64,000 nucleotides of DNA from an uncultured Pseudomonadales bacterium (GCA_964637295.1 CAZWWE010000001.1:121808-185807); one strand, 5' to 3'. Shown: positions 8,649-62,200, counted from the first letter of the stretch. Notes: generated by a model not told the origin, from the sequence alone. Translations and numbers: made by a program.

Positions 8649-8674
8649 AATTTTTAATTTCAATTAAAGAAAAT

Positions 8675-8844
8675 TTTTACTCTTGGTATTTTAATAAAGA
8701 CCGTAGAAAGCGCTGAACAAAAACAAAAAATAAGCAATCATGCTCATAAGCAGCGCTTTCTCCGAATGAGAAAAAGATTGTCAACTTCAAAAAGCAACAA
8801 TTTTCGTCGAATGTGTCTCTTATTAAAGTACCAAGAGTAAAAAA
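8675..8844. repeat. structured intergenic element family, copy A (~170 nt; 27-bp terminal inverted repeat enclosing conserved core with AAGATTGTYAAYTT…TTTTCGTCGAAYGTGTC)
   Basis: Terminal arms 8675-8701 and 8815-8844 pair (TTTTACTCTTGGTATTTTAATAAAGAC / GTCTCTTATTAAAGTACCAAGAGTAAAA). The core is homologous to copies at 23740-23900 and 42167-42335. It fills the hrcA-grpE intergenic gap. Confidence 0.6.
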
Positions 8845-22530: not shown

Positions 22531-23646
22531 TTATTCTATCATTTTTTTCTCGAAACGAATTTTAGAATTTCTGCTATGGCGAGCAATGGCTAAATTAATT
22601 AAATGATCTATCAATCTTCCATAAGTCATGCCAGTCGCCTGCATCATCAATTTGGGATACATGCTAATCTTGGTAAAACCAGGAATGGTGTTGATTTCAT
22701 TAAAAAATATCTCTCCACTGTCACTTAAGAAAAAATCTACTCTGGCCATGCCTTCAGCTTGACAAATTCTAAAAATTTTTTTGGATAAAGCTTGAATGGC
22801 TTGTTGTTGAGCTGGCAAAAGTGGAGCGGGAATTAACAATTGAGCTCCAGCTTCATCAAGATATTTGGCATCATAAGAATAAAAACCGTGTTTAGCATTG
22901 GGAATAATTTCGCCTACTTCACCGACGATTAATTCTTCTCGATTGCCCAGAACTGCACATTCAAGCTCTCTACCAGAAATAGCCGTTTCGATCAAAATTT
23001 TATGATCCACTGCAAAAGCTGCTTTCAAAGCTCTGTAAAATTGTTCCTGATTATTAACTTTATTGATCCCAACTGAAGAACCAGCACTCGCTGGTTTGAC
23101 AAAAAATGGCAACCCTAAAACTTGCGCAACTTGTTTAAAATCAATTGCTTGCCTTGTTGTTTGCTCAAAAGATAAATACTTGGCGACCTTAATCGCTGAC
23201 ATGATTGCTAATTTTTTAGTTATTTCTTTATCCATGGCAATGGCTGAAGCAAGCACATCTGGACCAACATAGGGTAAATTCAACATTTCTAAAAAACCCT
23301 GCATTTTGCCGTCTTCAGCAAAAGAACCGTGCATAATCGGAAAAACTACGTCGATTTTTTGATTGCCAGTGGGCAAAATTGCTTGACCGACGCCATCAGC
23401 CACACTCCAAGCAACTTCAGTAAAGCCAGTCTTTTTGAGAGAAATAAGATCTGGATCATCATCATGAGCTAAAAAATGTTGATAGTCGCTGTAAAAACGG
23501 AAAGTACCGTCTTTGGCCACTGCAAAAAGCAAGAGCTCATACTTGGTCAAATCTAAAGCAGCAATAATATTTTTGGCTGACACCAAAGACACTTCGTGTT
23601 CCACAGATTTACCACCACAAATCAAAGCCAAATAAGTTTTTGCCAT
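22531..23646 (-). CDS. ddl: D-alanine--D-alanine ligase
   Basis: 371 aa with ATP-grasp Ddl N-terminus (ICGGKSVEHEVSLVSA) and C-terminal motifs. Confidence 0.85.
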   Translation of the reverse strand: MAKTYLALICGGKSVEHEVSLVSAKNIIAALDLTKYELLLFAVAKDGTFRFYSDYQHFLAHDDDPDLISLKKTGFTEVAWSVADGVGQAILPTGNQKIDVVFPIMHGSFAEDGKMQGFLEMLNLPYVGPDVLASAIAMDKEITKKLAIMSAIKVAKYLSFEQTTRQAIDFKQVAQVLGLPFFVKPASAGSSVGINKVNNQEQFYRALKAAFAVDHKILIETAISGRELECAVLGNREELIVGEVGEIIPNAKHGFYSYDAKYLDEAGAQLLIPAPLLPAQQQAIQALSKKIFRICQAEGMARVDFFLSDSGEIFFNEINTIPGFTKISMYPKLMMQATGMTYGRLIDHLINLAIARHSRNSKIRFEKKMIE

Positions 23647-23739
23647 ATAAGAGACCTTTTGTAAAAACTATCTTAGCATGAGATCATCATTGGTAAAAAT
23701 GTGAAAATTTATCAAAAAACAAGCTAGCTTTCATTTAGT

Positions 23740-23900
23740 ATTTTCAATTTACTTATAACAAGCCATCGAAGGAGTTGCTTAACCAAATAAAAAACATTGC
23801 TTTGCTGGTAGACAACGACTTCGTTGAGTGAAGAAAAGATTGTTAATTTAAATAACAAACACTTTTAGCTGAACGTGCTTGTTCTAAGTGAATTGAAAAT
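23740..23900. repeat. structured intergenic element family, copy B (terminal arms 23740-23767 / 23877-23900 with 2-3 mismatches; conserved core)
   Basis: Core GAGTGAAGAAAAGATTGTTAATTTAAATAACAAAC…GCTGAACGTG is homologous to copies A and C. The right arm overlaps the stop of the xerC-like gene; the left end is 93 nt upstream of ddl. Confidence 0.55.
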
Positions 23901-24766
23901 TACAGCTCTTCAATTTTAATATTTGGCTGCATCTCTGGAGCTTCAATTAAATGAAGATATTTTTCTGTAGTAGTAATGCGTTTGTGACCCACTAGCTGAG
24001 AAACATAAACCAGAGGCGTACCTGCTTTTAATTGCTCAACGATGAAAGTATGACGCAAATCGTTAACTTTAGCATCTTTGATACCAGCTAGACGAAAATA
24101 GCGATCAATGGCGGTGCGAATGTTGCGTACTAAAAAAGGTCGACAAGTCTTGGTCAAAAATAAGGTTTTTTCTTTAGCTCGAGGGCGAAGTCTTAAATAA
24201 TCCAAAATAGCTTTTTTGGCGGCAGCATTCAGTGGAATACGACGGGCTTCTCTAGAATTTTGTGCCTGAATGTAAATTAGCTCCCTCTCTAAATCAATAT
24301 CTGTCATTTGCAAATAAGCTAATTCGCTGATACGCATGCCAGTTTGTAACAAAATTTCCACAATGGCGTGCATACGAGCATCAGCACGACAAGAATCGCG
24401 CAAAGCACGATATTCTAAACGAGATAAAATTCTCGGGGGAGTTTGATCAAATTTTGGCTGACTAATCTCCTCAGTTAAATTGTGTTCGATTAAACCTTCA
24501 CTCAAGCAAAAACGAAAAAAAGCTTTAATAGAGTTGATTTTGCGAGAAATTGATTTACTGCTATATCTTTGTTTTTTTAATAATTCTTTAAAATCTTCAA
24601 TATCAGTCGCCAACACTTCCGCTAACAAAGTTTTTGATCTTTTACTTAAAAAATCTGCCAACTGCTCAATATCTTTATTATAAGCAATCACAGTTGCGTG
24701 AGCTTTGCCATTATTTTGTAAGTGAGCAACGAACTTGACTTGCGCATCGACTAAGTTTGTGTGCAT
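23900..24766 (-). CDS. tyrosine site-specific recombinase (XerC/XerD family)
   Basis: 288 aa; C-terminal catalytic region with R…HxxR…Y (…LRHTFIVEQL…LVGHKRITTTEKYLHL). Confidence 0.75.
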   Translation of the reverse strand: MHTNLVDAQVKFVAHLQNNGKAHATVIAYNKDIEQLADFLSKRSKTLLAEVLATDIEDFKELLKKQRYSSKSISRKINSIKAFFRFCLSEGLIEHNLTEEISQPKFDQTPPRILSRLEYRALRDSCRADARMHAIVEILLQTGMRISELAYLQMTDIDLERELIYIQAQNSREARRIPLNAAAKKAILDYLRLRPRAKEKTLFLTKTCRPFLVRNIRTAIDRYFRLAGIKDAKVNDLRHTFIVEQLKAGTPLVYVSQLVGHKRITTTEKYLHLIEAPEMQPNIKIEEL

Positions 24767-26592: not shown

Positions 26593-26608
26593 AAATACTT
26601 TAAAAATG

Positions 26609-26677
26609 TTGCGGAACTAGGAGTCGAACCTAGCCTGTGGGATTATGAGCCCCACGTGCACCGTACACTATCCCGCG
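26609..26677 (-). tRNA. initiator tRNA-fMet (anticodon CAT) with reduced D-arm
   Basis: Minus-strand read CGCGGGATAGTGTACGGTGCACGTGGGGCTCATAATCCCACAGGCTAGGTTCGACTCCTAGTTCCGCAA. It shows the C1·A72 mismatch, three G-C pairs at the base of the anticodon stem (GGG/CCC), a CAT anticodon in loop CTCATAA, and T-loop TTCGACT. Confidence 0.7.
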
Positions 26678-26792: not shown

Positions 26793-26866
26793 GGCGGGAT
26801 AGCTCAGTTGGTTAGAGCATCGGATTCATAAACCGAAGGTCCTGAGTTCGACTCTCAGTCCCGCTA
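26793..26866 (+). tRNA. tRNA with CAT anticodon (elongator tRNA-Met or tRNA-Ile2/lysidine)
   Basis: GGCGGGATAGCTCAGTTGGTTAGAGCATCGGATTCATAAACCGAAGGTCCTGAGTTCGACTCTCAGTCCCGCTA: canonical cloverleaf, D-arm identical to bacterial elongator Met type, anticodon loop TTCATAA. Confidence 0.75.
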
Positions 26867-26920
26867 CAAAACAGACACCGCTAAAAAAACATTATTACAA
26901 TATCGTTTAAAAAAGCTTAT

Positions 26921-29079: not shown

Positions 29080-29102
29080 TCACGATTTATTTTTTTCATC
29101 AG

Positions 29103-29172
29103 CGATCTCTTGAAGAGATATATCTCTTCAGGTGATCGAAGTTCTTCAAAAAATTAATCGCTCCTTTCTATA
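29103..29172 (-). promoter_or_regulatory. conserved leader module copy R2 between groES and groEL: 36-bp palindrome CGATCTCTTGAAGAGATA|TATCTCTTCAGGTGATCG (29103-29138) and TATAGAAAGGAGCG box (29159-29172)
   Basis: Homologous to the modules upstream of nusA (4846-4913) and dnaK (8014-8096). The palindrome ends 33 nt upstream of the groEL ATG. Confidence 0.45.
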
Positions 29173-29188
29173 CATTTATTTGTATTTA

Positions 29189-37272: not shown

Positions 37273-37482
37273 ATGAAGAAAAATTATCAAACAGATCCAC
37301 GTTTGCTACAAGATCTTAATCAAAAAACCGCGCAAATTGAAGCCGCTTATTTAGCCAAACAGAGTAAAAAGCGTCAAAGAAAAGTTGAAAAAGAAGAGCT
37401 GAGTCAAAGATGGGTGGCTCCGCTATTATTGCTCATGACTCTCGTCACTGGTTTTTTAGTTTCACTCATTTTTAATCACTAA
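37273..37482 (+). CDS. small hypothetical protein with C-terminal TM helix
   Basis: 69-aa ORF; overlaps the 3' end of the convergent PBP gene by ~20 nt. Confidence 0.25.
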   Translation: MKKNYQTDPRLLQDLNQKTAQIEAAYLAKQSKKRQRKVEKEELSQRWVAPLLLLMTLVTGFLVSLIFNH

Positions 37483-39888
37483 ATTATCAAAAGAATTATC
37501 ACCACAAGCTTGTTTGGGTTCAGTGCCCTTGATAAAAATTTCCTCAGTCACTCGAGGACATTTAGCGCAAGGCAAAGTGCCAGTGGTGGCGCAAATTTTG
37601 ATTTTAATCATGTTTTCAGGTATCAAAAAACGATGAGGTTTTTGATCATCTAAAAGCAAAAGCATAATTTTATTCCAAATTGGTGAAGCCCCAGTTATTC
37701 CAGAGGCAACGTAGCTCATGGGACTATTGTCATTATTGCCCACCCAAGTAGCGACTAAACGATCGGTAGTATAACCAATCGTCCAATTATCTTTCATGCT
37801 ATTGGTGGTCCCCGTTTTAACAGCCACTTGTTGATTAGGAATATTGAGCACAGAAAAAGCCCCAAAAGCAGGCGTGCGTGCTCGATTATCAAGTAAAATA
37901 TCAGTGATCAAATAAGCCGCCTTAGGGCTCAATTCAAGATTTTCATAACAATTACTTGTTTCCAAAGCACATTGATTGCGATAAAGCAGTTCTCCCTTGT
38001 AATTACTGATTTCTAAAAATGGATTAAGGGTAACTGGATAACCAAGATTGGCAAAGGTACTATAAACAGTTGCCAACTCCGTCATTAGTACTTCGCCTGC
38101 ACCCAAAGTTAAAGATAAGCCAAAACGCTTTCTATCTTGCCAAGTCTTGATGCCCAAAGCCTCAGCCTTATCAATTAAATTATTGACGCCCAATTCCGCT
38201 GCTAATTTAACAGCTGGAATATTATAAGAAGAAGCTAAAGCCTCTCTTAGGGTCACGCGCCCATGAAAACGACCGTCATAATTTTTGGGCGCATAAGGTT
38301 TACTGCCAGGAATTTGATAAACCACGGGCGCATCCTCAATGATTGAGGCCGCATTTTTACCTTTTTCAAAAGCTAAGGCATAAGTCAGCGGCTTAATTGA
38401 TGAGCCTGGTTGACGCGGACGAATAGTCACATTAACTTGCCCATCATGCACAAAATCATAGTAATTAGCTCCACCAATCATCGCTAAAATTTCACCAGTT
38501 TTAGGATTGGTCACCAAAGCAGCGCCATTGCTAATTTTAAAATTTTTTAATTTTGCCACCTCCGCTGTTACAATTTCTTGTGCTTGATTTTGTAAATCAA
38601 GATCCAGGGATGTTTTCACTTCTAAACCACCCTTGGCCACCACTTCTTCACCGTATTTTAAAGCTAATAATTTTCTGATATACATCACAAAATGTGGTGC
38701 TTGAATATCAATTTTATCTTGATTAAAAACTAAAATTTCTTGCTTTGCCTGATCAGCTTGTAATTGGCTAATGTAACCGTCTTCAACCATGCGACGCAAA
38801 ACTTCAGCTTGTCTTTCATAGGCTAATTCCGGATTAGCCCCAAAAGGCGTGTAAGTTGAGGGAGCTTGAGGTAAACCCGCTAACAATGCCGCTTCTGCCA
38901 AACTCAAATTCCGAGCCGACTTATTAAAATAACGCCAAGAAGCTTCTTCAATTCCATAAGTTGAACCACCATAAGGCACGGTGTTAAGATACATTTCTAA
39001 AATTTGCTCTTTGCTATAAATACGCTCAGCAATTAAAGATAATAAAAGTTCACGAATTTTACGGCGATAGGTTTTTTCATTACTTAATAAACGATTTTTA
39101 ATTAATTGCTGAGTAATTGTCGAGCCTCCCTGCATCGTTTCACCTGCAAAATTTTTTAAGACTGCTCTAAAAATACCTTTGAAAGAAAATCCCCAGTGCT
39201 TATAAAAATTTTGATCTTCAATAGCGACGGTGGCATCTTTTAGATATTGCGAAACTAAAGGCAAAGCAATCAAAGTCCGGTTTTCATCTTCATAAATCCG
39301 ATAAAGTAAATTACCATTTCGATCCAAAATTCTTGTAGTTAAATTTTGTTCTTTATTAGATAAATCTGTAGGAGAAGGCAAATCTTTGATCGCCAAATCA
39401 TAAAACAAATAAGAGCTGCCTAAAAAAAGTAAAGTTAAAAAAACTGAAGTTAAATAAGAATAAAAAATGGGCTTTTTTTTTGGCCGACCAACTTTACGAT
39501 TTAAATGAAAAAATCTTAAAAGGCGAATTTTAAAAAAAATTAATTGATCATTAAATTTTTTGCTTTTTTTTTGCAAACGTTCTCTAAGCAAAACAAAAAA
39601 ACGCTGCCACTTAATATAAAAAGGCAATTTTTTTCGACCACGACCTTTTTTAATTTTTAGAAATTTTAAAATTAAAATATATTGATAGATCAATTTTTTT
39701 ATTGATTTATCTATTTTTTTAGACAGTTTCAAAAAATAATTTTTTAACCACCTTTTAAGTTTGATCGTAATTGGCAATTTGGGGCGACCACGCTTAATCA
39801 ATTTAGTTGAAGAAACAGCTTCAAAAACAATTTTTTCCTGCTTTAATCTATTTTTTTTAGCTTTTTGCGAATTATTTTTTTGAGCCAC
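37462..39888 (-). CDS. class A penicillin-binding protein (PBP1A type, transglycosylase + transpeptidase) with ~150-aa basic N-terminal tail
   Basis: GT51 motifs (EDQNFYKHWG, GGSTITQQL); transpeptidase domain. The N-terminal cytoplasmic region contains three GRPK/GRGRK repeats. Confidence 0.85.
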   Translation of the reverse strand: MAQKNNSQKAKKNRLKQEKIVFEAVSSTKLIKRGRPKLPITIKLKRWLKNYFLKLSKKIDKSIKKLIYQYILILKFLKIKKGRGRKKLPFYIKWQRFFVLLRERLQKKSKKFNDQLIFFKIRLLRFFHLNRKVGRPKKKPIFYSYLTSVFLTLLFLGSSYLFYDLAIKDLPSPTDLSNKEQNLTTRILDRNGNLLYRIYEDENRTLIALPLVSQYLKDATVAIEDQNFYKHWGFSFKGIFRAVLKNFAGETMQGGSTITQQLIKNRLLSNEKTYRRKIRELLLSLIAERIYSKEQILEMYLNTVPYGGSTYGIEEASWRYFNKSARNLSLAEAALLAGLPQAPSTYTPFGANPELAYERQAEVLRRMVEDGYISQLQADQAKQEILVFNQDKIDIQAPHFVMYIRKLLALKYGEEVVAKGGLEVKTSLDLDLQNQAQEIVTAEVAKLKNFKISNGAALVTNPKTGEILAMIGGANYYDFVHDGQVNVTIRPRQPGSSIKPLTYALAFEKGKNAASIIEDAPVVYQIPGSKPYAPKNYDGRFHGRVTLREALASSYNIPAVKLAAELGVNNLIDKAEALGIKTWQDRKRFGLSLTLGAGEVLMTELATVYSTFANLGYPVTLNPFLEISNYKGELLYRNQCALETSNCYENLELSPKAAYLITDILLDNRARTPAFGAFSVLNIPNQQVAVKTGTTNSMKDNWTIGYTTDRLVATWVGNNDNSPMSYVASGITGASPIWNKIMLLLLDDQKPHRFLIPENMIKIKICATTGTLPCAKCPRVTEEIFIKGTEPKQACGDNSFDNLVIKNE

Positions 39889-42140: not shown

Positions 42141-42166
42141 TTTTAATTACTTTATTGATACCAAAA

Positions 42167-42335
42167 ATTAATTTAGTCCTTTAACATAAGACCATTTGTA
42201 GGAGCTGAATCCAAACATCAATAAAAAATCATGTTTATAGACAGCGACTGCAATGAGTGTAGAAGAAGATTGTTAACTTAAATAAGCTAATAATTTTCGT
42301 CTAACGTGTCTTATGTTAAAGGACTAAATTAATTC
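42167..42335. repeat. structured intergenic element family, copy C (perfect 27-bp terminal inverted repeat AATTAATTTAGTCCTTTAACATAAGAC … GTCTTATGTTAAAGGACTAAATTAATT; conserved core)
   Basis: Arms 42167-42193 and 42309-42335. Core GAGTGTAGAAGAAGATTGTTAACTTAAATAAGCTAATAATTTTCGTCTAACGTGTC. It lies between nrdR (overlapping its stop) and nrdJ. Confidence 0.6.
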
Positions 42336-45335: not shown

Positions 45336-47717
45336 ATGAATCCATTTTTATTGGCAGAAAGAAAAAAAGCCAAAAAACATCGTCGCCAAATCGCTGACAA
45401 AGGCTTTGCTGTCATTGAACAAATTAAAAATCATCGTTTGTATCAATTAATTCTATTGAGCATTGTTTTAATTTTTTTTGGTGTGCTAATTTATTTATAC
45501 AAACAACTACCTTCTCCCAACAATTTGACCGCTAATGAAAATTTTCCCGTCAGTACACAGATTTTTGATCGTCATGGCACCTTGCTTTATGAAATTTATG
45601 GCCAAGAAAATCGTATTCCCATCAAGATTGGCGATTTACCAGATCACGTTTTACAGGCTACAGTGGCCATTGAAGATAAAAAATTCTATTCACATCATGG
45701 CCTAGATTTAAGTGGTTTAATTCGTGCCAGTTTAAAAAATTTCCGCGGTGGTAATTTGCAAGGCGGCTCAACCATTACTCAACAATTGGTCAAAAATGCC
45801 TTATTAAGCAAAGAAAAAACTTTGCAGAGAAAAATCAAGGAAGCCGTGCTGGCCCTCATGACCGAAATTATTTACAGTAAGCAAGAAATTTTAGAAATGT
45901 ACTTAAATTATATTTCTTATGGCGGCACAGCCGTTGGCATTGAAGCTGCGGCTAATAAATATTTTAATAAATCTGCCAAAGATTTAAGTTTAGCTGAAGC
46001 CAGTCTTTTAGCGGGTTTACCTCAAGCTCCAACTATTTATTCACCTTTTGGTTCTAATCCCGAAAAAGGAAAAAATCGCCAAAAAGAAGTTTTGCGTCGC
46101 ATGGTTGAAGATGGTTACATTAGTCAAGCAGAAGCCGATCAAGCCAGTAACGAAATTCTAGCCCTGGCACTTTCTAAAACTGACATCAAGGCTCCACATT
46201 TCGTTTTTTACATCAAAGATTTGCTTTATGCTAAATATGGTGAAAAAACTGTTGAAACAGGAGGTTTGCGGGTCACCACTACGCTTGATTTAAGCTTGCA
46301 AGAAACCGCTCAAGCATCTTTATCAGGCGAGCTGAAAAAACTCAGTCATTTAAAAGTGGGTAACGGCGCAGCCTTAGTAAGCAAACCAAATACTGGCGAA
46401 ATTTTAGCGATGATTGGCTCTAAAGACTACTTTGATAATGAAGCCGACGGTCAAGTTAACGTCACTTTGTCTCTCAGACAACCGGGCTCTTCCATTAAAC
46501 CAATTATGTACGCCACTGCCTTTGCGAAAAAAACTCTCAATCCCGGCACGATGCTTTTAGATATCCCCACCTGTTTTCGCGTTGCTGGACAAAAAGATTA
46601 CTGTCCCAAAAATTACACTGGCGCATTCATGGGCCCAGTCACTATTCGTCAGGCTTTGGGCAACTCACTGAATATCCCTGCTGTCAAAGCTTTAGCCACG
46701 ATTGGCATTGAGACTTTCATTAAACAAGCTCAACTGATGGGCATCAATACTTGGACTGATCCGGCTAATTATGGCCTATCTTTAACTCTGGGAGGGGGCG
46801 AAGTTAAAATGATTGAGCTAGCAGAAGCTTTTGGTGTCTTAGCTAATCAGGGCGTACGTTTGCCTCTGACTGGAATTTTAGAAATCAGCAATTATAAGGG
46901 CGAAGTTTTGGAAAAATATGATCCTGAACAAGCTCGAGCTGACGTCGCCTTCTTAACTGAAAATGAGTTAGTGTTGGAACAAAATCAAGCCAAAAGAGTG
47001 ATGGAACGTGCACCAGCCTACTTGACCAATCATATTATGCAAGATAATAATGCTCGAGTTAACGCTTTTGGCTCAAATTCAAAGTTAGTCATCAAAAATA
47101 AAATTGTTTCTGCCAAAACTGGCACCACCAATGATCTCAAAGATAACTGGACAGTCGGCTACACTCCAGATTATCTGACTATTGTCTGGGTAGGTAATAA
47201 TAATAGTCAATCTATGAGTTATTTAGCTTCTGGTATTACTGGTGCGGCTCCAATTTGGCATGATATTATGACTTGGATTTTACAAGATCAAGAAGTGAGC
47301 TGGATAGAAAAACCAAACGATGTCAAAATTGCCAATCTTTGTTTAACGGGCATGCCAGCAAAAGCTGGTCTTGGAACTTTATTAATTAATGACCCCAATC
47401 ATCAAGATAAAAATTTAAGTCTAACTAATACTGATACTGATCCGATTGCCAGTTGTGAAAGCAAGGGCCAAGAATTATATTGGGAAAACTCCAAACCAAG
47501 CTATGCAGGGACTTTTCGCAAAGCATATTGGATTCGCAGTAGCACTGGCTTGCCGCCCAAAGAAGGTGAGGAAGCAACTGATTTGCAACTTGAAGAACAT
47601 AGCTTTTTTTATGATCCTTTAACCAAACTTTATTGTGCTGATTGTAACCGCCCCACTGACGAAACTGGCAAAATTATTTATGAAGCACAAATCGTTGATG
47701 TCAAAAATATTTTTTAG
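45336..47717 (+). CDS. class A penicillin-binding protein (second PBP1A-type paralogue)
   Basis: EDKKFYSHHG, GGSTITQQL, transpeptidase SxxK/SxN/KTG region. Confidence 0.85.
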   Translation: MNPFLLAERKKAKKHRRQIADKGFAVIEQIKNHRLYQLILLSIVLIFFGVLIYLYKQLPSPNNLTANENFPVSTQIFDRHGTLLYEIYGQENRIPIKIGDLPDHVLQATVAIEDKKFYSHHGLDLSGLIRASLKNFRGGNLQGGSTITQQLVKNALLSKEKTLQRKIKEAVLALMTEIIYSKQEILEMYLNYISYGGTAVGIEAAANKYFNKSAKDLSLAEASLLAGLPQAPTIYSPFGSNPEKGKNRQKEVLRRMVEDGYISQAEADQASNEILALALSKTDIKAPHFVFYIKDLLYAKYGEKTVETGGLRVTTTLDLSLQETAQASLSGELKKLSHLKVGNGAALVSKPNTGEILAMIGSKDYFDNEADGQVNVTLSLRQPGSSIKPIMYATAFAKKTLNPGTMLLDIPTCFRVAGQKDYCPKNYTGAFMGPVTIRQALGNSLNIPAVKALATIGIETFIKQAQLMGINTWTDPANYGLSLTLGGGEVKMIELAEAFGVLANQGVRLPLTGILEISNYKGEVLEKYDPEQARADVAFLTENELVLEQNQAKRVMERAPAYLTNHIMQDNNARVNAFGSNSKLVIKNKIVSAKTGTTNDLKDNWTVGYTPDYLTIVWVGNNNSQSMSYLASGITGAAPIWHDIMTWILQDQEVSWIEKPNDVKIANLCLTGMPAKAGLGTLLINDPNHQDKNLSLTNTDTDPIASCESKGQELYWENSKPSYAGTFRKAYWIRSSTGLPPKEGEEATDLQLEEHSFFYDPLTKLYCADCNRPTDETGKIIYEAQIVDVKNIF

Positions 47718-49732: not shown

Positions 49733-50263
49733 ATGTGGAAAAAGAAAAGCTGGCCAAAATTTAATTTATTTCAAAAAATTTTTGCTAATCAAAAAATCGC
49801 CTTGTTGATCAGTTCTTTGGACAAATTCTTTATTAAATTACCTCACTTGCCTAAAAAACTCAGGCTACTGATCAGCCGTTTTGTGCCTTTCTTAGCCTTG
49901 ATTTTCGGTTTAATTGGCCTAGTAGCGAGCATATTGGCTGGTTCTTTTGTCGTTCTGGGCTTGCTCGCCGGCGAATGGGGCTTTTTAGCTGAAAATGCCT
50001 TCAACTTTGGGATAACTTTGCTAAGCGCCCTCCTGCTACTAAAATCTTTCAAACCGCTGCGGGCGGGCAACGCTGTGGGTTGGATTTATCTTTTTTGGTC
50101 AGAAATTTTGGAAGTCATCAACTTGATCGTGCGCACCATCAATCAAGAAAGTGGTTTGATTTGGAATTTAGTCATAATCATCTTGAGTTTTTACTGCTTA
50201 TTTGAAATTGGACAATTCTACGTGTATAAGAAAGAGAAGGAAAAAGGATTAAATACAATTTGA
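49733..50263 (+). CDS. hypothetical membrane protein (3-4 TM)
   Basis: 176-aa ORF convergent with and overlapping the 3' end of the giant gene. Confidence 0.35.
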   Translation: MWKKKSWPKFNLFQKIFANQKIALLISSLDKFFIKLPHLPKKLRLLISRFVPFLALIFGLIGLVASILAGSFVVLGLLAGEWGFLAENAFNFGITLLSALLLLKSFKPLRAGNAVGWIYLFWSEILEVINLIVRTINQESGLIWNLVIIILSFYCLFEIGQFYVYKKEKEKGLNTI

Positions 50264-53200
50264 TTCTTAAGTTTTTCATATAAAGAATTTAGAAGTATTT
50301 CTTCATCATTTAAGTTATCACTATTTGTTTCAAATGATTCTAGACCAAAAACATCTAGTCCAATACTTTCTAAAAAGCTCTTACCATCATAGATTGTTTT
50401 TTCTGTGCCGTTTATATAGTCACTTAGATGATCATTTCCTATTCTTAACAACATTCTGTTTATAGCAGCCATGTTTTTTACAAATAATCTCATATTCAAA
50501 GGAAATTCTAGCTTAAGTCTATCTGTTTCTTGCATCATGGCATTAAAAAATGAAATTTGTGAATTACTATCTGTATCGCGTTTGATTAGCTTTTCTTTAA
50601 GAGCAACTCTTAAATACGAAGCGTAGGCTTTCCAATAATTAAATAGTCCACTTTTTCTAACTTGATTACTGTTTAATAGATATCTTGTCAAATTAACAAA
50701 TTTATGAAAATCAGTTTCTTGATTAGACAAGAGAATTTTTATTAAATCAACTTCTTCTTGAGAAAGAACTAAATAATAACTTCTGTCGATAACTGAAACA
50801 TTGGATAAGGCTTCATCGGCCATAATATTTCCAATATGCAAATCAGAGTGCAAAATATAAGCTGTTTTACCATCTGCCAAGGTAACAGGGTAATTGAGAT
50901 GTTTGACATAATCGGTAACGATATCAGAAATCAATTCTTCAATACGCTTCGCTCTCTCATTATCCTGATTATTCACATGATGGTTTTCGCTAATTAATTC
51001 ATTTTCAAAATTTGCAATTAGATTTTTTAAAGTATCGCCCTCAACATAATCTTCAATTTTAATCCAACGGTTATAAATTTCGTGCTTGTTTGAAGTATTG
51101 AAAGTAAAACCAAACCTCGATTGATGTGGATATAATTGATTAAACAGGATGTCATTCGAGATAAAATTTTTATCTTGTATGTCTTCAGTATTCCATTGCT
51201 CTAGAGTATTAATTAATCTTTGAACAACTTCGTAATTTTTCTTATTACTTTTATCTAACTTCTGCAAATCATTGACAACTGACTCCACTAAAGTTCTCGT
51301 TTCTGCTACATCTATAATCACATTGGGATTACTGATTTTAAGAACTTTCATAGTTATCTCATCGTTCGTTGGATTGAGAATTTCCACTAGATAAGTTGTA
51401 TTAATTGATCCACCTCCAATTTTTTTAATGATTCTGATATTGGGTAATAATTCTTTGAGCTGCTTTGCTTGCGCCAAATTATAATCAATTTCTTCTTGAG
51501 AAGCTGCATTAGCTGGATTTTGTAAGGAATCAATGGCTGTTTCTGCACTTTGAAATAAATTCGCCATATATAAATTTGAGGCATTATCATAAACACTTAA
51601 AAATTCTTGCTGCAACTCTTTTGGTAAATCAAAATATTGACCAAATACTTGCAAAAACCGCACTCCCAAGCTGCCCAAGCTTTTAGCCAATTCAACAATG
51701 AATTGACCGGTCTGAATCTTACCGTTATTGCTTAAGTTTTGAATTGGCTCTCTTTTAATACCAAACTTTTTTAAACTTCTAAGAGCAATATTCTCAAATT
51801 GAGCGTTGAGATCAAAGACAAACTGATAATTACTGTTTTTGTTTATAACAATATTTTTATCTTGATTGAATAAATTTGTTAGCATTTTTCTAACTTTTTC
51901 TCGATAGTCCTCTGCAACGTCTGATGGCAAATTTTCACTGATTATTGTTTCAACTGCATAATTATTACTGACCGCTCTAGGATTTCCCTGCAAAAAACTA
52001 TCAGCTAGGGCTCTAGAAATACCCAATTCAATGCGCGTTGAACCTTCAACCTGGGATAAAGTTGAGCTAATAATATTTTTTAAAAGAGGTTTTAAATTTA
52101 ATTCTTCAGAATCTTCAAGCTGATCAGTTAAAAATGTAGCTATTTTGAGATGATTATCCTCATTCAATAGTAATTTTTCAGATAGCAATTTGGCAATAAA
52201 AGCTGTTTTTTCTAATTTTGATAAATTATAGAAACTCGCCACAAATTCCTCAAAAGTTGGAAAAGACGTTAATCCTGGACCAGACAAGTTGCCATTTTCA
52301 TCAACAAAAACGCTTGTTTTTTTGTGAATTAAGTAACTCGCTATTATAGAAAAAGCTTGCAAACTGCCGGAGTCTCTATCATAAGTTAATAGCGATGAAT
52401 AATATTTTGCTAAATAGTATTTAACTTTTTCGTGATCTCCTTTTATTGAGGCTTCAAAAAATCCGAGTAAATCTGTCTCATTCATATTAGTAATATAGTT
52501 TGAAACTAGAGTATCAACAGCAACTGTTCTGTCTAAACTCTTTTGCTCCGACCCCAAACTTTGATTTAAACTCTGATCTTCAGAAATAATTTTATATTCC
52601 TCAAAAGTTTTGACATGACTTTCTAAGAAAAAATGTATGTATTGATTATGTCCATTTTCTAAAGATTGTTTGAGAAAATCATACGCCTCATTAAAAGGTA
52701 ACTCTTGAAAGAGCTTAATCGCAATTTCTTCAAGAATTTGATTTTTAGTTTGCAATGAAGGGAAATTTTTTTCAAGAAAATTATACAAATCAACTCCTTG
52801 TAAATTTTTGGATTTTTCTTCAACAAACTTTAATTCATAGCTGATCAAGGGTTTTAATAAATTTGCTTCAACTTCATTGGTTCCAAAATAATATTCTTCA
52901 CCAGCTGTTCGATCTATGGCCGAAGCATAACGTCCGTTAGCTAATTCAAAAAACCATCTTAATTGAGTCGATACAGAAAAATTTATTGTTTCAGGAGCAA
53001 AATGAATACCTGGTCGAAAACCACTAATGTCTTGATTGATATCAGAAATATTTAAAGTGTTTAAATAGTTTTGCAATTCTTGGATGATCGTAAAATTACT
53101 AAACAAAGAAAAATTTTTATTAGACAATGGAGTATTTTTGCAAGCTTCTCTGATTTCATCAAAATATTCAGCTAAAATCTGCCATTCTTTGTCGTAAATT

Positions 53201-56200
53201 AGACTTTTTAGATAATCTAGGTACTGATCCTGAAGTTGCCTGTTTAGATCCAAAAAGGCTTGATCTATATTCGTTTGATCATCGAAATCCGACAACAAAA
53301 ACGAGTTCTTAAAAAAAGTAAGAATAAAATGTTGAGCCAAGATAAAACTATTGGATTCAATGTCTGCTTCACCTGAAAAAATTTGTTTAAAATTATTTTC
53401 ATTTAAAGCGAACTTAACTAATAAATTATTTAAAAAAACTCGATCTTCTAATTCTAGAAAGCTATGATTTAAGAAATCACTTAGTGTATCAACATCAAAT
53501 CTTGTGACTGGTTTATTTTTTGTAAAAATTGTTAATATTTTTTGATTAAATTCTTGAATTTTTATCTCTTGCTCTGGTTGATTAAGCTTAGAAACTCCTT
53601 TATAAGCAGAGAGGTCAATGTAGGTGTCAGTATCGTCATTTCTTTTTTCATTAAGATCGAGTTTCTTTTTAATATAATTAAAATATTCTTCTCTTTTTTT
53701 TAATTCACTATATTTAAAATTATTATTCGAATATTCTAAAATTTGATCTTTAGACCAATTTGGGTTTTGTAGCATTAAATTTATCAATCTGTCCAAATAT
53801 GGTTCTGGATCTAAATCATTTAATCGAATTTCGCTTATCAAGCGATCTTGAAGATCAAGAGATAATGAGTACAAGTGATAGCTTATTGAATGTGCATAAG
53901 CTTGCTTGCCCAGATTTAGACCGCCTGCGAACTGAATAATTAATGGAAATTCTTTTTCTACATCATCGAACAAATCGGATATAGTTTTCCTCAGATTTTT
54001 ATTTTTTAAAAACTCTCTGCGACTTGATAATTGAAAATCAAGAATTGATTGTGGCTTCAAGACTAAATCCGGCTTATTCTTTTCAAGAAGACTTGACCAA
54101 GGATCTTTATTTAACAGTTCCTCATAATATTGGCTATTTAAGTCGGCGTCACTTGGTTTTAGTTTGTTAACTAGATTTCTAGTTTTAAAAAATAATGGCG
54201 AGATAGAAAAATATAATTTGTCATAATCAAAGAGAAAATTAAAATGGAATGCTTCAAAAAAAAGATCTACATGATTATATAAATCGCCAAATCTATCTGT
54301 AGAACTATAGGAAGAAATCCAAAGCAATTTTATCCCTTTGAGTTGATCAGTGTTTACATGAAGATCTCTAAGTAAGTAATCGAATTTTTTGAACTCTTGA
54401 TCAATTATTTCAAGAGTTTGCTGAAATAGAATTGTATTGTAAAGCTTTTGCCAAAAACCAATACTCTTTTTCGATGAATTGTTTATATAATCTTTAGTAT
54501 TACTGACTCTTTTTCTAAAATCAGGAACAAAATTTTCGTAGTATTGTTTTTTAATGCTTGGATTGGCAGCAGAATACAGCCCTTCCCAAACTGCATTTTT
54601 TTTCGAATTGCTTAATTCATAGATAAAACCAAAATTAGTAGCTTTCTTCCACGAAAAAGGCATTGCGGTCGGTCTAATATTTTCTGCAATACCTAATTCT
54701 TGAAAATTAAAGGCTACTTCTAAATTTATGTTTCTATTAAATAAAGAGCCATGATCTAAATCAGAAATTATTTTGAATTTACTCATATTAAAGAGCTGAA
54801 CACCTCTATTACCCCAAAAAGATTTTTTGGCGGTTCTATTATCCGAATAACTACCAATAATTTCTGCGGCTCCCTGAAATGCTTTTGGTTGATACCCTAA
54901 TCTGCCCAACCTGAGCAAAGATGTTCTATCAGCTTTGTATTCTTGTGCTCTACCACTAGTTAATTCAGATAGCATGTCGTTCCAATTCAAAAAATTATCC
55001 TCAAAGTGAGAAAATTCATGAACTAAAATGGCAAACAATTGATCTTTAGTTTCTAATGCATTAATTAAGCCCTGATTAACAACTAAAGAACCATCAGGCA
55101 AAGCAAAAGCATTTAATCCTTGATTAAGAGATACATAAACCTTTGCCTTTGGCAAAGGTTCTTTACCAGCTTCTGCTCTTTCTTGATTAATTAAGTCTGC
55201 TAATTGGTCGACAAAGGTTTGGATATCTCTTACCATTTCATCATCTGTGCTTAAAAATCGAGTGTTGTAATGCTCAGCATTTAAAATATTCCTAATTTCC
55301 TCTAAAACTTCTTCTTTACTTCTCTGCCAATTTCCTTGTATGTGATCAGTGCTATTCAAAGCTATTTCTTGAGAAAGGGGAATTAAATTCATTTTTTTAT
55401 CTAAATCTAACACTGATGTAATGTATGAATTTAATTTTGAGTTTCTTTCTTCTTGATTAAAGTTTTGAGTAAAACCACGCTTTAGCAAAACACTAGCATC
55501 TGTTTTTAATATTCTAGCTTGATCAAAAAAAGTAAAAAATGAAAATCGTCTGCTAATTACATTCTTTATTCCCTGTAATACTCCGCCAATAAGTTTATTG
55601 CGGTTTAGTTTGCCAGCCTTTTCTTCAAATTCAGCCATTTGCTTGAGACCAACAATTGCTGCTGCTTGATTACCTTCTAGAAGATCATTAACATCAGAGA
55701 TTTCTTGCGGAGTCAAATTGAGAGTTTCTGTTTGACGACCAATGCTTAAAAAGCCGGGTTTAGTTACTATGGTCATTTGTTTACTTGCTAGAATTTGCTT
55801 CGCAATGAGAGTGGCTTGATAGACAGAAGTGATGGCACGAGTTGTATCTGCTTTAGTTTGTCTAATCTCTGCTTCTTTAGTATCGACCCAAGCATTGAGG
55901 TAAAGCTGAACACACTGGTTTTGCATACCGTGTGAATTGACCACTTGAAGCCTGGTATCACTGAGTTGTTTAAGGGCTGCTTGTTTCTTATCTGCTGCTT
56001 GCTGAGTAAGAGTTTGCGCTTGCTTCAGATCCCCAGCAGTTTCAGCCTCACCAACTTGCACAAGCAGAGCTTCTGCTTCTTGCATCAGGGCATTCGCCTT
56101 TTCTACTCCAGCTTGGGTATCTAAGCGCACTTGATTGCAATCGGAGCAGAGGGAGGAAAAATCGAGTAAATTTGATTCAGGGCTATCTGTTTGCAAAGAT

Positions 56201-59200
56201 TGATATTCAACATTGATGGAATTAAGGGCTGATCTAAATCTGTTCTCAGTTTCAGTAAAAGAAGGATTGTCAGTTAAATTTACTTCAATAAGGTGATTGA
56301 GCAAATAATCTTTATACCTAATTTCTAACAATATCTTTTTCTTTAATTCTTGAAATTTCAATAAATCAACAGTTTGGATTCCTGCTTCGTTTAAAATTAT
56401 TGGCAAAGATAAATCTTGTCCAGTGAAATAACTAAAATTACCCATTTCATTTTCAAATAATTGACTCAATAAATCGTTAAGCTCTTGTTGATATTCATTT
56501 ATTTCCTTATCAAAAGAAAATTTAGCGGCAGTCTTTTTAAAAGCAATAGAAAAAATTATTTTGCGTAAATCCTGCGAAGATGTAATTTCTGGAGGCAAAT
56601 CATTTTTATAAATTCTAAACAACATTTCTAATTCATGTTTCAAATTTTCAATATCTGAGTCTCTAATTTCAGAAACTGCTGAGTTTTTGACATAATCAAT
56701 AAAGATTTTATTTTGAGAAGACAGATGACTAATGATTTTCTTTAAAACTATTGCGACATCCTGCCATTTTTTTGGCTGACCAGGTATTGATTTTGCTACT
56801 TCTATATAAATACTTAATTCATCAATAGCACTGAACGCTTGTAGCAAATTAATGCTACTGGGTAAATCCTTTTCCATTTGTAATTGAGGAATTACTTTAT
56901 CAAAATCATTCAAATTGATAACTAATTTTTCATCTTTATCAACCTCTAATGCAAGTAGGGTGTTAAAAAAAGGAGCTCTCTGCTGCAATCTTCTTTGTAA
57001 TTCAGCGAATACATCTTTAAATAAAAGAGTGGCAAAATCTGATGGAGTATCGTGAATAATTCTTAGAAATTCAGTTGAACCATATTTTGCTTCAATTTTT
57101 TCTCCTAAAACCATGCCTAAGGCATAGGGTCTTAAATATGAGAGATTAATTGAGGCAGCTCTATTTACATAGTTACTAAAAATTGAAAAATCTATAGCAC
57201 CAATCAATTGATTGCTTTGGCCTTGTTTTTTCAGGCCGTTAGAAAATGTTTGGAGAAACCTCGCGCTTGCTCTTTCTCCTCCCATTTCTCCAATAAAAGT
57301 TGATAAATTTCTTTCTGTTTCGTAAGTAAAATGGTCATTTTCCTTCAATATTTGAGTTAAACTAGATATTGAATCAGAATCAAATCTGGAACTGTCAAAA
57401 ATATAATCCAAAACTTCATTAGTGTTTTGTTCTGTTCGTCTAGGCTTGGCAAGCCTATCAACTGCATGATCAACTTCATGAGTAATTGTCGTAATGCAAT
57501 CAAACAAAGACCTGCGATTTAGCTTGTTATTAATAAAAATGGGATGTAAGGTATCATTATCTTTTATTGGCTGAGCATATGCATTGGCAGACTCTTCAAA
57601 AACACTACTAATAATTGGAACGGTTACTTCTTTGCCATTTTTTTTGATTAAGATAGTCGCAATTGGCAAATCTCGACTTAAAGATAAAAATCTTGACAGC
57701 TGTTGTTCATCGGTTAAAATGGTGGCAATATCAGCTATTTGTTGATCACTTAGTCTTTCAACAGAAATTCTAATGATTTCTACCGATTCTTGATAAATTT
57801 CTTTAAAATATTCTTCTAAACTGGCAGCCGCTCCGGCTTGATTGAAAAAGATTTTTGCTTGCGGATCTAATAGTTTATTTATTAAAACCTGTTGCAATTC
57901 AATAGAAACATCCTGTTTTTTAATAGAATCCATTAAATTGGAAATTGCATATTGTATATCTGGATATAAAGATTTAGCACGAAAGATAAATTCTCGCTCG
58001 ATGAAATAAGGTAGGGAAGAAATTTTTTTCGCATTAATTTCATACGAACCATCTGTTAAAATCGTTGCTAAACCTGCTTTAACTAATGAATCAAGATAAT
58101 TTTTTGCAAAATCTAAATTAGAAGAAGTGTCATTAGTTATTAAATCTAAAAGTTGTTTCGGAGATCTGATTTTTTCCTCCGTCTGATCAAATAATTGATC
58201 CGCTTCTCCAACACCTAAATCAGAAACAAGTTGATCTTCTTGGCTTAATTCCTCAAAATTAAGCCAAATATTAATCATTGTTTCTTTTACACTACTAACG
58301 GTTGCTTGCCCCAATTTGATTCCAAATAAATTGCTTTTTAATTCTTTTTCTTCTGTAGAAAAATACATTTGAGCCAATTCTGAAGTACCAATAACTGGAT
58401 TTTTCCCATCTTCTCTGCTGGTGGCTGTTAACAACAGCAATAATCTAATTACTTCAGATTTATAATTAACTGTAATATGTTCACTTAAAAGTTCTTGAAG
58501 TAGCTCTTGTTCGCTCAATCCTTCGTGCTTAACAGTTAGTGCTAGTAATTGAGCAGTTCCTTCATTGAGATAATGATGAAAAACAACGCGATTCGTATTT
58601 TCATATTCGAATCCGCCAAGAGCTAGGGTTTTAATTAATTCTGATGTAACAATGAAATTAACATCTAATTGAGCTGCCTTTTTTTTGTTAATTAAAATTT
58701 CGGTATGTTCAAGAAAATCCAATCTGACATAGCCAAAACTATTAAATTGCTCATTAAGAGCACTGGAAAAAGATTCAATACTATTTTCGTCTTCGATACC
58801 TTTTTCTACTAACCAAGTTAATATTTTATGCGATAGTTGTTGTGAATTTGCCAAGACCGCCTTAGATTTACTTGCTCGCATAATTCCTTCATCTGAAGCA
58901 GAAAACTTATCAAGTAAAACAGATCTGATTTCATCAATCTCAATTATTTCTAGATTTTCGTCCTCATCGGAGTTAACATTCTGACTCAAATTTTCTTCAA
59001 GAATAGGATCAATTTTTTGAGCGTTGACACTTTGAGAGTTTTCAATATGCCTAGCAATTTGCTCTAATTCCTCTAGAGTTAAGGTTTCTAAAGGATCAGC
59101 AATTAACAAGGCTTGACCAGAATTTGTTTGCCATTCACCAATCACATTAATCAACTCAGTTTTGCGTTGTTTTTCAGCAACAAGTCTAGCCGATTCGTGC

Positions 59201-62200
59201 AAAATTTTTTGCAACTCAGCCAGCAAATTTTCCACTTGCTCCGCAGAATTAAGTAGCGAAGCTAAGGGTAAAGAAAGAGAGCTGGCCAAAGTTGCGCCAA
59301 GCCCTTCGATTTCAGTTTGATTAATGAATTGTTTAGTTTTAAAGACATTTATTACTAGTCTAATAAATTCTTGGCCAACATCTTTGCCCGAAGTTAACAA
59401 GTCAGATAAGTTCTGCAACGAGTCACTATCAAAACTAAAGCCAGCGGCTTGTAAAGATTTAATTAATTCCAACAAAGTTCTTCGCTTATTTAAGAGATCG
59501 TCAGTTTGAGCAAGTAGAGTGGTTTGATTTGTTAATGCTTGTTCTAAAATTGCCAGCTGAGCTTCTATGCGCTTTTGCTCCTGATCAGCGACCAATTGTT
59601 GAGCAATCCTTTTTTTAACACGATCGATAAAGGTTTCAGTTGTTTTTAAATTTAAATCCAAATCTTTCAATTGAAGAGTAGAATCAATTTGTTCTTGTTC
59701 CAATGTTTCACTTTGCTGCCTTAACCGGGTAAGTTTTTGAGCGGCTTCAGCCGAGAGTTGAGTTTTGCTCTCTTGGTTTGGAGACAAAGGCAAAATACTC
59801 AAGGCTGGGAGATCAGCTACTGGCTGATTTTCTTGCAGTTTTACTACTAATTGAGCAGCTGGAGTTTTGTGAGTAAAAAATCTTCCTCGATTTTGCCCAC
59901 TGTTTTTTACTTTTGCGTAAAATTCTGATAAACCGCCATCAATGTTACTTACTCTTGAATCTTTAGGCTGCTCATTTTCAGAATGACCATGGACAATCTG
60001 AGTAGCAGATAAAACCCTAAGCAGGTTATCCACGGTTGGCGTGTTCAGTCTTCCTCTATCGCTCAAATCCTCCATTAATCTTCTAAAATTACCAAAACCA
60101 TCTTTGCCACTTACAATTAGTTTAACCTTATCATTGATCGCGCTCACACTTTTTCCAAGTTTTAAGTATTTATCTGTATCACTGTGCATATAAAGCACTC
60201 CGTCAACAATTGTCACTACATCTAAGCTCATTAGCCATTCGGCAAGTTGGGGATAATTGAGTAAAAACAATAATTCATCATTGGTAATTCCAGGACTCAT
60301 GCCAGTAGAACTTGCCAGATCAACTAAATTAGCTAGACTTGCATTAGGTCTACTTTTTTGAAAATTAAAAAATCTATGATAGGCAAAAAGAGCATTAATG
60401 TCATGATTGCCCAGTAAAACTTTAATTCGAGGAGTTCCATCGGCAAAATTACCAGCTTCTCGAACTAAGTTCATAATTTTTAAGGCAGTTTCAACACTAT
60501 TTACACCTTTTGGACCACGACCTATCAGATCACCCGTTAAAATTAACTGATCATTCTCTCCACCAATCCACTTGCCTTTTTTGTCAAGTAAAGCCGTAGG
60601 CAGTTTGTGTCCGTTTTCATCTTTTGTTTGACCGCTAAGTAATCTTAGCAAGGCATTCCAATCACCATGAACATCACCAATTGCTGTCACGTTCCGTACT
60701 TGAGCTTCATTATTTTGAGTGGAGATTTGCAGCTGTGCAGCAGATAAATGTCGACCGGCAAACCACTGCCAATTGGTTAGAGATGAGAAAATTTGTTGAG
60801 TGTAAGCTTGGACATTTTGGGGATCATTGGAGAAAGCTGGGTCTCTTGCTAAAGCACTACTAACATTAGCAGGTTTTATAAGCTGATTAACAGCATATTT
60901 TATCCATTCAACCATTTCACTTCTAAGCTGAGCTTCATTCAAGTGATTTATTTGTTGTTCTTGAATAAGTCGTTTCAACCCTTTCTTTATTTGAAAGTCA
61001 ATTATGGCGACATTAGCTTCAAGTATTTTTTCTGCTACTTGAGCCTGCTTTTCTTGGGAACTTTGTAGCTGATTTTGCTCAATTAAGTTTTTTATTTGCT
61101 GATCGATTGAAGCTAATTCTGCTGCTATTCTTGACAGATCTGCTGACTTTTGAGCAATCCTCGTATCAAGTTGCTTTTTCCATTCTTCATTTCTTTCTAA
61201 AATTTCATTAAGAGTAGCGATTTCAACTTTTTGTTGTTTCAGGTTATCAAGCTCAATGGTTAAATCGCTGATGGCTGCCTTAATTGAACTAATTTGATCA
61301 GTGATTTGTCGACGACCAGTTAAGAGCGCCTCGAGTGAATAGGCTATTGGGTCTATTGTCAAATCTATTGAATCACTAGCCAGAATCTCTTCTATTGCTG
61401 GTTCAACTGCTGGTTGTTCTATTGCTGGCTCTATTGCTGGCTCTATTGCTGGCTCTATTGCTGGCTCTATTGCTGGCTCTACTGACTGCTCTACAATTGG
61501 CTCATTGATTACTTTTATTTCTTCAATGAATTCTTCTAAAGAATAAATTAGATTTACTGATCCATCAGCATCAGTTTTAGCCTGAGCAATCACTATCAAT
61601 TTAATCTGATTATTAGGATCACTTAAGGCAATTATGTCCCCTTCTCTAAGAGGATACTTTTGTTGAGAAGGAATTCTTTGGTCATTAACATAAGTCCCGT
61701 TAGTACTGCCCACATCTATAATAAATGGACGTCCATTTTCAATGATAAACTGAGCATGGTTTCTAGAAACTTGTGAATTATTAATAATAATGTCATTTAA
61801 ATCATTTCTACCCAAATTAATTATTACTTCTGAAACTGGCTCTGAAAATCCATATTGTTTAATCAACTCTACTTGACGTTTAAAAATTTGTTGACTTGTT
61901 TCAGATCCGAAAAATGAATTAAGTAAATATTCAATAGCCTTACGATTACTGATTGGTTCTCTAGATCCAACTTGAGCTAATTGTGAATGATAGAAATCAA
62001 CAACTTCATACAAGTTTGCGCTGAGCTGATAAATATCTTTAAATGTTGGTAAAAACTTATCGCCTGTAACATCAATCATGGCTTGCACCAATAATAAGCC
62101 AGAAAAATATGACCATTCATAAACACCCAGATTACTTTTGTTGGGTAAGATTGCATCTAAAAGAGTATCGGTCAACGGACTTTGAACTGATTTTGCACTT

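Follow-up and report, generated by a model that had tools for sequence, protein, structure and literature searches.

Proteobacteria, firmicutes, cyanobacteria and rickettsiae are all well-known hosts of small palindromic repeats. The Rickettsia palindromic elements (RPE) are palindromes of 100-150 bp that spread in a reduced genome, beside or inside essential genes, and often lie in-frame within coding sequences, whereas all copies of the element described here lie in spacers, overlapping a stop codon at most. The Correia elements, Neisseria MITEs of 104-157 bp, resemble it in their terminal inverted repeats of ~26 bp and in co-transcription, and their hairpin is reportedly cut by RNase III with altered mRNA stability (work of De Gregorio et al. 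in 2002-2003), but their terminal repeats are alike between copies, they carry a TA duplication and they number in the hundreds.

The bcr1 repeat of the Bacillus cereus group (~155 bp) is co-transcribed with its neighbours and has a cruciform-like fold with compensatory base-pair changes (PMC3184786, PMC6542083). Our element is like it in size, in being non-coding, in a distribution that varies between strains, in a branched fold maintained by compensation and in having no known transposase. It comes, however, from another phylum and is unrelated in sequence, and bcr1 is set apart by its description, which gives TTTAT direct repeats, not found flanking our copies, and 11-130 copies per genome, against at least one or two matches to the exact core pattern on each of two ~0.75 Mb contigs here; a copy-specific outer stem is no described feature of bcr1. 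ERIC/IRU elements of enterobacteria (~127 bp) are likewise transcribed intergenic repeats in either orientation, with a long imperfect hairpin and with filled and empty orthologous spacers, and in Yersinia ERIC alters the stability of upstream mRNA (PMC3184786, citing De Gregorio 2005, Wilson & Sharp 2006); they are simple hairpins with TA flanks, whereas ours is a three-way junction on a 24-27 bp stem, of unrelated sequence. REPINs too are hairpin-forming replicating units with compensatory changes that decay into singlets and remnants, and a 'clover' alternative fold and a single-stranded intermediate have been proposed for them (PMC3116915), yet they comprise two G+C-rich REP units with invariant 16-mer ends and have a RAYT gene, whereas the present element is A+T-rich with variable ends, and no RAYT gene was seen in the window sequence scanned (the window being the whole 64-kb stretch of DNA analysed). 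Compensatory changes, co-transcription and mRNA-stability effects all have precedents among bcr1, ERIC, Correia and REPIN (PMC3184786, PMC3116915).

In being small and non-coding, present at 11 independent sites and polymorphic in insertion among relatives, the element agrees with a MITE, but the copies of the window and its relatives lack the common terminal inverted repeats that a MITE would share with an autonomous IS, and no IS was found in the window. Since it departs from both a strict MITE and a REPIN, we file it in the general class of bacterial palindromic intergenic repeats, in which it is a new family outside any named one.

Window copies and their three-way junction fold

Three full copies and one internally deleted remnant are located in the window by a covariance model built from 12 copies, the full copies scoring 143-163 bits, and an nhmmer profile made from the three copies matches exactly these three places (E ~1e-40 each). 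They are given below, '+' being the reference orientation of the element family, which at copy C is antisense to nrdR and nrdJ.

42166-42334, + strand: copy C, full element, between the nrdR stop codon and the nrdJ start; covariance-model score 162.8 bits, nhmmer E 2e-40, fold -63.9 kcal/mol (z -9.8)
42166-42192, + strand: copy C, 5' arm of the closing stem P1, AATTAATTTAGTCCTTTAACATAAGAC; 27/27 complementary to 42308-42334
42193-42255, + strand: copy C, hairpin P2, GGAGCTG../..CAGCGAC, with tandem G.A/A.G and a variable loop (RNAalifold, pair counts)
42257-42305, + strand: copy C, hairpin P3 and junction helices (RNAalifold, pair counts)
42308-42334, + strand: copy C, 3' arm of P1 (inverted-repeat search, helix coordinates)
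8676-8841, + strand: copy A, between the hrcA stop codon and grpE; 157.9 bits, P1 arms 8676-8701 and 8815-8841
23738-23903, + strand: copy B, between the stop codon of an xerC-like gene and ddl; 143.3 bits, P1 arms 23740-23763 and 23877-23900
4942-4996, + strand: remnant 5' of nusA; 29 bits, E 2e-5; orthologous to the full copy L129:1788-1953

Copies A, B and C align across ~170 nt with a mean column identity of 73%, and rank above every other local inverted repeat in the 64 kb, with arms of 27 nt and 100% complementarity in C (42166-42192 / 42308-42334), 24 nt and 96% in A (8674-8697 / 8820-8843) and 24 nt and 92% in B (23740-23763 / 23877-23900). Their fold z-scores against shuffled sequence (C -9.8, A -7.4, B -4.7) are comparable on both strands. 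The flanking genes encode HrcA and GrpE (A), a Xer-type tyrosine recombinase and Ddl (B), and NrdR and a class II RNR (C); at copy A the right arm abuts the stop codon of hrcA, and at B and C it overlaps the xerC and nrdR stop codons, the nrdR one (42329-42331, minus strand) falling inside the 3' arm of P1. The nusA remnant has lost ~100 nt of core; it retains the two 18-nt P1 arms, each with ~10 nt of adjoining core. A further inverted repeat at 39533-39700 (27-nt arms, 114-nt spacing) was considered as a divergent copy and rejected, being low-complexity A+T inside a PBP-family ORF without similarity to the core. Beside copy B, the Xer-type gene (window 22531-24766) is followed by ddl, and in three relatives (L139:1466-3469, L140:1549-3522, L141:1-2821) by a class Ib aminoacyl-tRNA synthetase gene (Pfam tRNA-synt_1b), so that a local gene replacement or rearrangement has occurred there.

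The secondary structure was derived with RNAalifold on a MAFFT alignment. Each copy folds as a T-shaped three-way junction, in which the closing stem P1 (24-27 bp, 27 pairs in the consensus) carries the hairpins P2 and P3, and a single strand of either polarity takes this fold. In the consensus, P2 consists of 11 pairs, includes a tandem G.A/A.G and encloses a variable loop of ~35 nt; by pair counts on the alignment, 6 of the 11 pairs show compensatory changes. P3, to which two short junction helices lead, holds the invariant AAGATTGT and the most conserved sequence of the family, AAGATTGTTAAC..AATAATTTTCG, and the strands at the junction are minimal (0, 1 and 2 nt). Across the 12 copies standard pairs occupy 95.9% of cells, compared with 78.2% in 500 shuffles and 37-45% when partners are slid by 1-3 columns, and double-sided changes are seen at 35 of 54 pairs, compared with 19.5±2.3 in shuffles (0/500 reach 35) and at most 10 with partners slid. 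The inner helices covary as well; indeed, the 2-bp junction helix occurs in four pair combinations (GU/AC, AU/AU, GC/GC, AC/GU). Adding the diverged member L136, whose P3 stem is different yet paired, raises the compensatory pairs to 39/54 and gives P3 its first double changes, in an alignment that leans towards the structure because it was fitted to the model.

P1 contains 287 Watson-Crick cells, 9 G.T, 5 A.C and 6 other, so that with G.T hardly commoner than A.C no single RNA strand is indicated; wobble pairs are not clearly favoured, and these counts are compatible with a palindrome in DNA or with a stem under very strict selection. On the reference strand, P3 has one G.U that never varies in the 12 close copies and another pair that is either G-C or G-U; the tandem G.A/A.G of P2 is replaced by Watson-Crick pairs in the copies between hrcA and grpE (A, L028). 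The P3 G.U and the P2 tandem G.A exist only on the reference strand, and at 7 of 11 sites this strand runs antisense to the genes. For copy C the sense-mRNA strand folds at -61.9 compared with -63.9 kcal/mol for the reference strand, P1 still forming and the inner hairpins being slightly weaker.

The initial annotation, which recognised the three full copies, the 24-27 bp terminal inverted repeat closing each, arms that differ yet stay paired, the conserved core, the flanking genes with their stop-codon contacts and the lack of a conserved ORF, is borne out on all of these points, the core being the stable part among paralogs. It missed the fourth, internally deleted copy. A small ORF in the element is rejected, as the core ATG runs into different frames in A, B and C owing to an indel. 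The annotation had also proposed a covariance-model search for further copies and a comparison with Rfam; further copies, in the window and related genomes, are described below, and the comparison gave no family match at either gathering or permissive thresholds. In the former scan the window returned two tRNAs only, and in the latter the best hit of the element was a generic long hairpin at 26 bits against a threshold of 171 bits.

Distribution, conservation and decay

Outside the window we found 10 further occurrences in related metagenomic genomes, and the family now comprises 13 full copies at 11 independent sites, plus remnants. The sites are mutually unrelated, short spacers of housekeeping genes that differ from lineage to lineage:

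hrcA to grpE: copy A, L028, L142
xerC to ddl: copy B
nrdR to nrdJ: copy C
dnaX to ybaB: L130
rnj to ftsK: L127
alaS to '?': L096
nusA leader: L129
glyA to folD: L121
adjoining an rluB-like gene: L126
nrdJ to PBP: L136 (diverged member)
between the divergent mreB and a PEGA-domain gene: L128, L123

When public genomes were scanned with the 20-mer core, the matches listed comprised 3 real copies in 116 stretches and at least ~110 chance matches; a longer gapped pattern gave eight metagenomic loci, all real copies (8/8). The covariance model found no match in 715 kb of unrelated DNA sharing the core 20-mer. Two pattern scans of viral contigs found no copy, and a viral origin is rejected on that result. 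One might suspect no more than a chance likeness of AT-rich spacers, given that the window genome has 36.6% G+C and the core 20-mer so many chance matches, or else an assembly artefact. Full-length matches at E 1e-35 to 1e-47 and the negative controls refute the former; the window NrdR is present in metagenome assemblies of six samples, with the element in every contig that spans the spacer, and as it thus recurs in independent assemblies it is no assembly artefact. We give either notion virtually no credence.

The element's hosts belong to a single narrow clade of uncultured bacteria, with genomes of ~0.75-0.85 Mb, contigs of 0.75-0.87 Mb and 81-95% identity to the window in both HrcA and NrdR. 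Its public labels conflict ('uncultured Pseudomonadales' MAG, 'candidate division TM6', 'Candidatus Pacebacteria', 'Patescibacteria group'; records L028 (= L144, CAZFIY010000038.1), L096 (CP011212.1), L121 (DITI01000062.1) and P0124), and at least the Pseudomonadales label looks like that of a mis-binned contig. A search of the literature on Dependentiae or Patescibacteria for such palindromic repeats found nothing relevant.

Of the spacers between nrdR and nrdJ, that of the window is filled and those of its relatives are empty or decayed (NrdR identity to the window in brackets):

window: spacer 188 nt, full copy C
L131 (95%): spacer 84 nt, remnant
L137 (87%): spacer 37 nt, empty
L136 (86%): spacer 7 nt, empty at this site
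L133 (85%): spacer 9 nt, empty
L135 (84%): spacer 49 nt, empty
L134 (82%): spacer 11 nt, empty

The insertion of copy C is confined to the window's lineage. Between hrcA and grpE the window and L028/L142 (HrcA 95%) carry the element and L138-L141 have empty spacers (48, 19, 9 and 56 nt); the L123/L138 genome has the mreB copy and lacks both the hrcA and nusA copies. The nusA site presents a series, from the full element in L129 through the 55-nt remnant in the window to a 30-nt perfect palindrome in L142, ATCTTAAGTACTTT-AA-AAAGTACTTAAGAT, and nothing in L138; the L131 remnant between nrdR and nrdJ has lost the proximal inner arm and the core. After insertion, copies either stay almost unchanged or lose their centre, leaving a perfect hairpin. 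Compared with the empty sites, possible target-site repeats are TTAA (or TTAATTT) at C and a T-run at A, in low-complexity A+T that leaves them ambiguous; imperfect flanking direct repeats of 7-9 nt occur at L121 and L126, and there are none at L127 and L128. No transposase or IS was found among the genes of the 64-kb window, whose sole recombinase is a housekeeping-type Xer, and no Y1 transposase among its scanned small ORFs.

Relative to the flanking genes seven sites are antisense, three sense (L121, L126, L136) and one lies between divergent genes. A link between orientation and replication strand is rejected: GC skew mirrors gene direction in every locus, and so carries no independent signal.

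Orthologous copies are strongly conserved. Copy A and its ortholog in L028/L142 differ at 8 of 171 positions (1/57 in P1, 5/35 in the P2 loop), set against a background divergence between the window and L028 of 42-46% at four-fold sites, 13-16% in coding DNA and 19-38% in other spacers; even against a rate of 0.13 the binomial p is <1e-3. These comparisons indicate that a structure is under selection in the element. At the nusA site the window and L129 differ by one change in 36 arm nt, with four-fold sites 60% different. Outer-stem changes between orthologs come in pairs, as with TTTAGT/ACTAAA in the window and CTCA../ACTGAG in L131 between nrdR and nrdJ, or A-T and C-G, a transversion pair, in L128 and L123; at the nusA site an extra flank pairing is ATCTT/AAGAT in one ortholog and ATTTT/AAAAT in the other. 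The younger pair L128/L123 differs at 7/170 positions compared with 6.9% locus-wide, a comparison of little statistical power.

Among paralogs, by contrast, the core is stable and P1 variable: C and the L128 copy differ at 2/52 positions in P3 and the junction, 9/35 in the P2 loop and 29/54 in P1. Within the arms, only the inner ~13 bp are semi-conserved, and no relation is seen from copy to copy in the outer 6-15 bp; C, L130 and L127 have the inner arm CCTTTAACATAAGAC in common, with outer arms that are unrelated but paired. As P1 is nevertheless the most stable part among orthologs, the outer stem must have been set at the birth of each copy and then frozen. Its source is not a pre-existing target palindrome, for there are none in the empty nrdR-nrdJ and hrcA-grpE sites of nine relatives, nor an inverted copy of the flank, for the outer arms are unlike either side of the empty sites and absent elsewhere in ~330 kb of related loci. 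It might arise by fold-back synthesis on a hairpin intermediate or by arm-to-arm template switching.

Nature of the element and its possible effect on mRNA

We hold with moderate confidence that the element is a dispersed, non-coding palindromic repeat of ~160-170 bp, of the general MITE/REPIN/bcr1/ERIC-like kind, whose stem probably serves as an mRNA processing or stability site. Its spread may rely on an enzyme, encoded at another place in the genome, that recognises a folded single-stranded intermediate; this would explain why core and pairings are conserved at unrelated sites, both being preserved in those lineages where copies are still produced. As the three window copies lie inside operons, the transcripts would carry a ~25 bp double-stranded stem from the upstream stop codon onward. 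The geometry of P1 suits an RNase III substrate, being nearly perfect over 24-27 bp where ~20 bp or more are required, and by analogy with the repeats described above the likeliest effect of the stem would be RNase III-type endonucleolytic processing and/or a block to 3' exonucleases, so that the upstream and downstream cistrons would no longer share one stability. Were such an effect under selection, the conservation of orthologous copies would be explained, and the survival of the arms beyond the core at the nusA site fits a host-side value that lies in the hairpin and not in the core. Set against this explanation are the lack of a transposase or partner gene in the sequence searched, the lack of a consistent target-site duplication, and an outermost stem that is the least conserved part among copies, whereas it is the most conserved in a classical MITE. 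The conservation of orthologs, far above that expected of junk, also fits a dedicated host function, and the strand-specific G.U and tandem G.A, antisense at 7/11 sites, sit badly with a role purely in sense mRNA.

The initial annotation had instead read core conservation with covarying stems as the signature of a structured RNA and not of a MITE. A structure under selection does stand; the exclusion of mobile DNA does not, as the family behaves like mobile DNA and compensatory hairpin changes are known for REPINs and bcr1, so that covariation cannot separate a structured RNA from a mobile palindrome. Its placement of the copies within operons on one strand likewise holds for the three in the window but not for the family (7 antisense : 3 sense : 1 divergent), and the 'REP/ERIC-like element' that it listed as an alternative is the better label, in view of the filled and empty sites, mixed orientation, central deletions and absence of a clear wobble preference. 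Of the roles it offered, an attenuator finds no terminator-like site at any of the three window copies.

We therefore weighed a functional structured RNA, either a cis module in operon transcripts or a small RNA of the reference strand whose copies arose by duplication, and consider it unlikely. In its favour all helices covary, down to the four-way variation of the 2-bp junction helix, the invariant G.U and tandem G.A/A.G exist on one strand only, purifying selection is strong (8/171 in orthologs against ~43% at four-fold sites), and P3 and the junction are near-identical across species even as the P2 loop drifts. However, the same junction is filled or empty among close relatives, and with orientation unfixed at 7:3:1 no one strand is co-transcribed at all sites, the better-pairing strand being antisense at most. 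The core has been deleted at two sites where the hairpin persists, P1 has 9 G.T against 5 A.C cells, one ortholog change (A-T to C-G) is a transversion pair without a wobble route, and there is no match in Rfam and no conserved promoter or terminator. Scans for promoter-like and terminator-like sequences at the three window copies gave matches at chance level, none conserved between copies; an internal or outward promoter, represented only by chance hexamers, and an intrinsic terminator (G+C-rich stem with a U-run) are both rejected there.

Several of the same observations bear on a hairpin that acts at the level of DNA, the T-shaped single strand being the substrate of a recombinase or HUH enzyme (as in REPIN/RAYT, attC or parvoviral hairpins), its effect on mRNA incidental and its arms kept perfect by quasipalindrome correction through template switching or by fold-back synthesis at each move. 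An almost purely Watson-Crick P1, paired double changes between orthologs at three loci including the transversion pair, deletions that proceed from the centre outwards and retain perfect palindromes, outer stems that are copy-specific yet missing from empty sites, and junction strands as minimal as those of DNA three-way hairpins all argue for it. Yet no partner enzyme was found in the sequence searched, orientation is unlinked to strand composition beyond gene direction, the core sites of attC are unconserved and a cassette array is absent. Arm-to-arm correction alone, moreover, leaves the divergence of orthologs unslowed, so that frozen stems would still require selection. We regard this account as improbable. 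We are similarly doubtful that the element is more than a decaying MITE, whether a domesticated, strand-specific three-way junction of RNA or DNA with a host function, kept by these minimal genomes under strong selection, or a mobile hairpin that rebuilds a perfect outer stem at each insertion; if true, such rebuilding, perhaps through fold-back synthesis on a single-stranded intermediate, would have no described counterpart in the spread of bacterial repeats.

Several named systems were also considered and rejected. An integron attC site, defined by R''/R' core sites (RYYYAAC / GTTRRRY) at the stem base, is discounted since a GTTAAAG-like sequence occurs only in the C subfamily, inside the stem and not at its base, beside neighbours that are single-copy housekeeping genes; no reverse-transcriptase gene was identified beside any copy, as a retron msr/msd would have; and the defining features of hammerhead or other ribozymes are absent, as is an Rfam match. 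The C arm contains TTATGTTAAAG, which we take to be identical to the E. coli XerD half-site at 10 of 11 positions, and copy B abuts the Xer-like gene, but with the motif in one subfamily only and the arms variable we dismiss a Xer/dif site as coincidence.

Spacers in these compact genomes are often 7-50 nt, and the persistence of a 170-bp insertion at the stop codon within the hrcA-grpE, nrdR-nrdJ and dnaX-ybaB operons requires that it be tolerated or useful. Most striking are the conservation of orthologs, one copy having remained nearly unchanged while synonymous sites neared saturation, and the copy-specific outer stems. The succession from empty site to full element, central deletion and bare palindrome offers a natural series for a selfish hairpin becoming a retained part of an operon, and the family cautions that stem covariation by itself is no proof of a riboregulator.

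Neighbouring repeats and genes

The window holds a second repeat family of ~75-105 nt, directly 5' of nusA, dnaK and groEL (4824-4928, 7995-8075 and 29085-29187, in minus-strand sense), also present at L138:14300-14410 and L142:8040-8135. Its layout is a AAAGGAGC box, a long hairpin (e.g. GATCACCTGAAGAGATATATCTCTTCAAGAGATC) and the start codon, and the nusA-copy stems of two related genomes differ yet pair. It matches neither the CIRCE consensus nor an Rfam family, and may represent a variant heat-shock operator, an RNA thermometer or some other small repeat. The nusA leader (window 5008-5045, minus strand), with a TATAAT box ~40 nt upstream, closes with a typical intrinsic terminator, made up of GGAGGACTGTTGAAAGACAAGTCC and a run of seven T; short and conserved across the clade (L129, L138, L139, L140 and L142), it may be an attenuator for NusA autoregulation. 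The palindromic element was inserted just downstream of this leader.

One fifth of the window is taken up by an ORF of 4587 codons (50218-63981, minus strand) with 12-nt tandem repeats at 61384-61503, and similar giant genes of 4743 (L135) and 7004 residues (L133) occur in relatives. Two divergent tRNA-Met genes (26608-26677, minus; 26793-26867, plus) have 115 nt between them. Finally, a 293-nt inverted repeat of 71% identity (38730-39022 and 45869-46161, 6.8 kb apart) has its arms inside the large ORFs 37462-39888 (minus) and 45336-47717 (plus); as the syntenic genes in related loci encode a transglycosylase/transpeptidase (PBP), the two ORFs are probably paralogs in opposite orientation.
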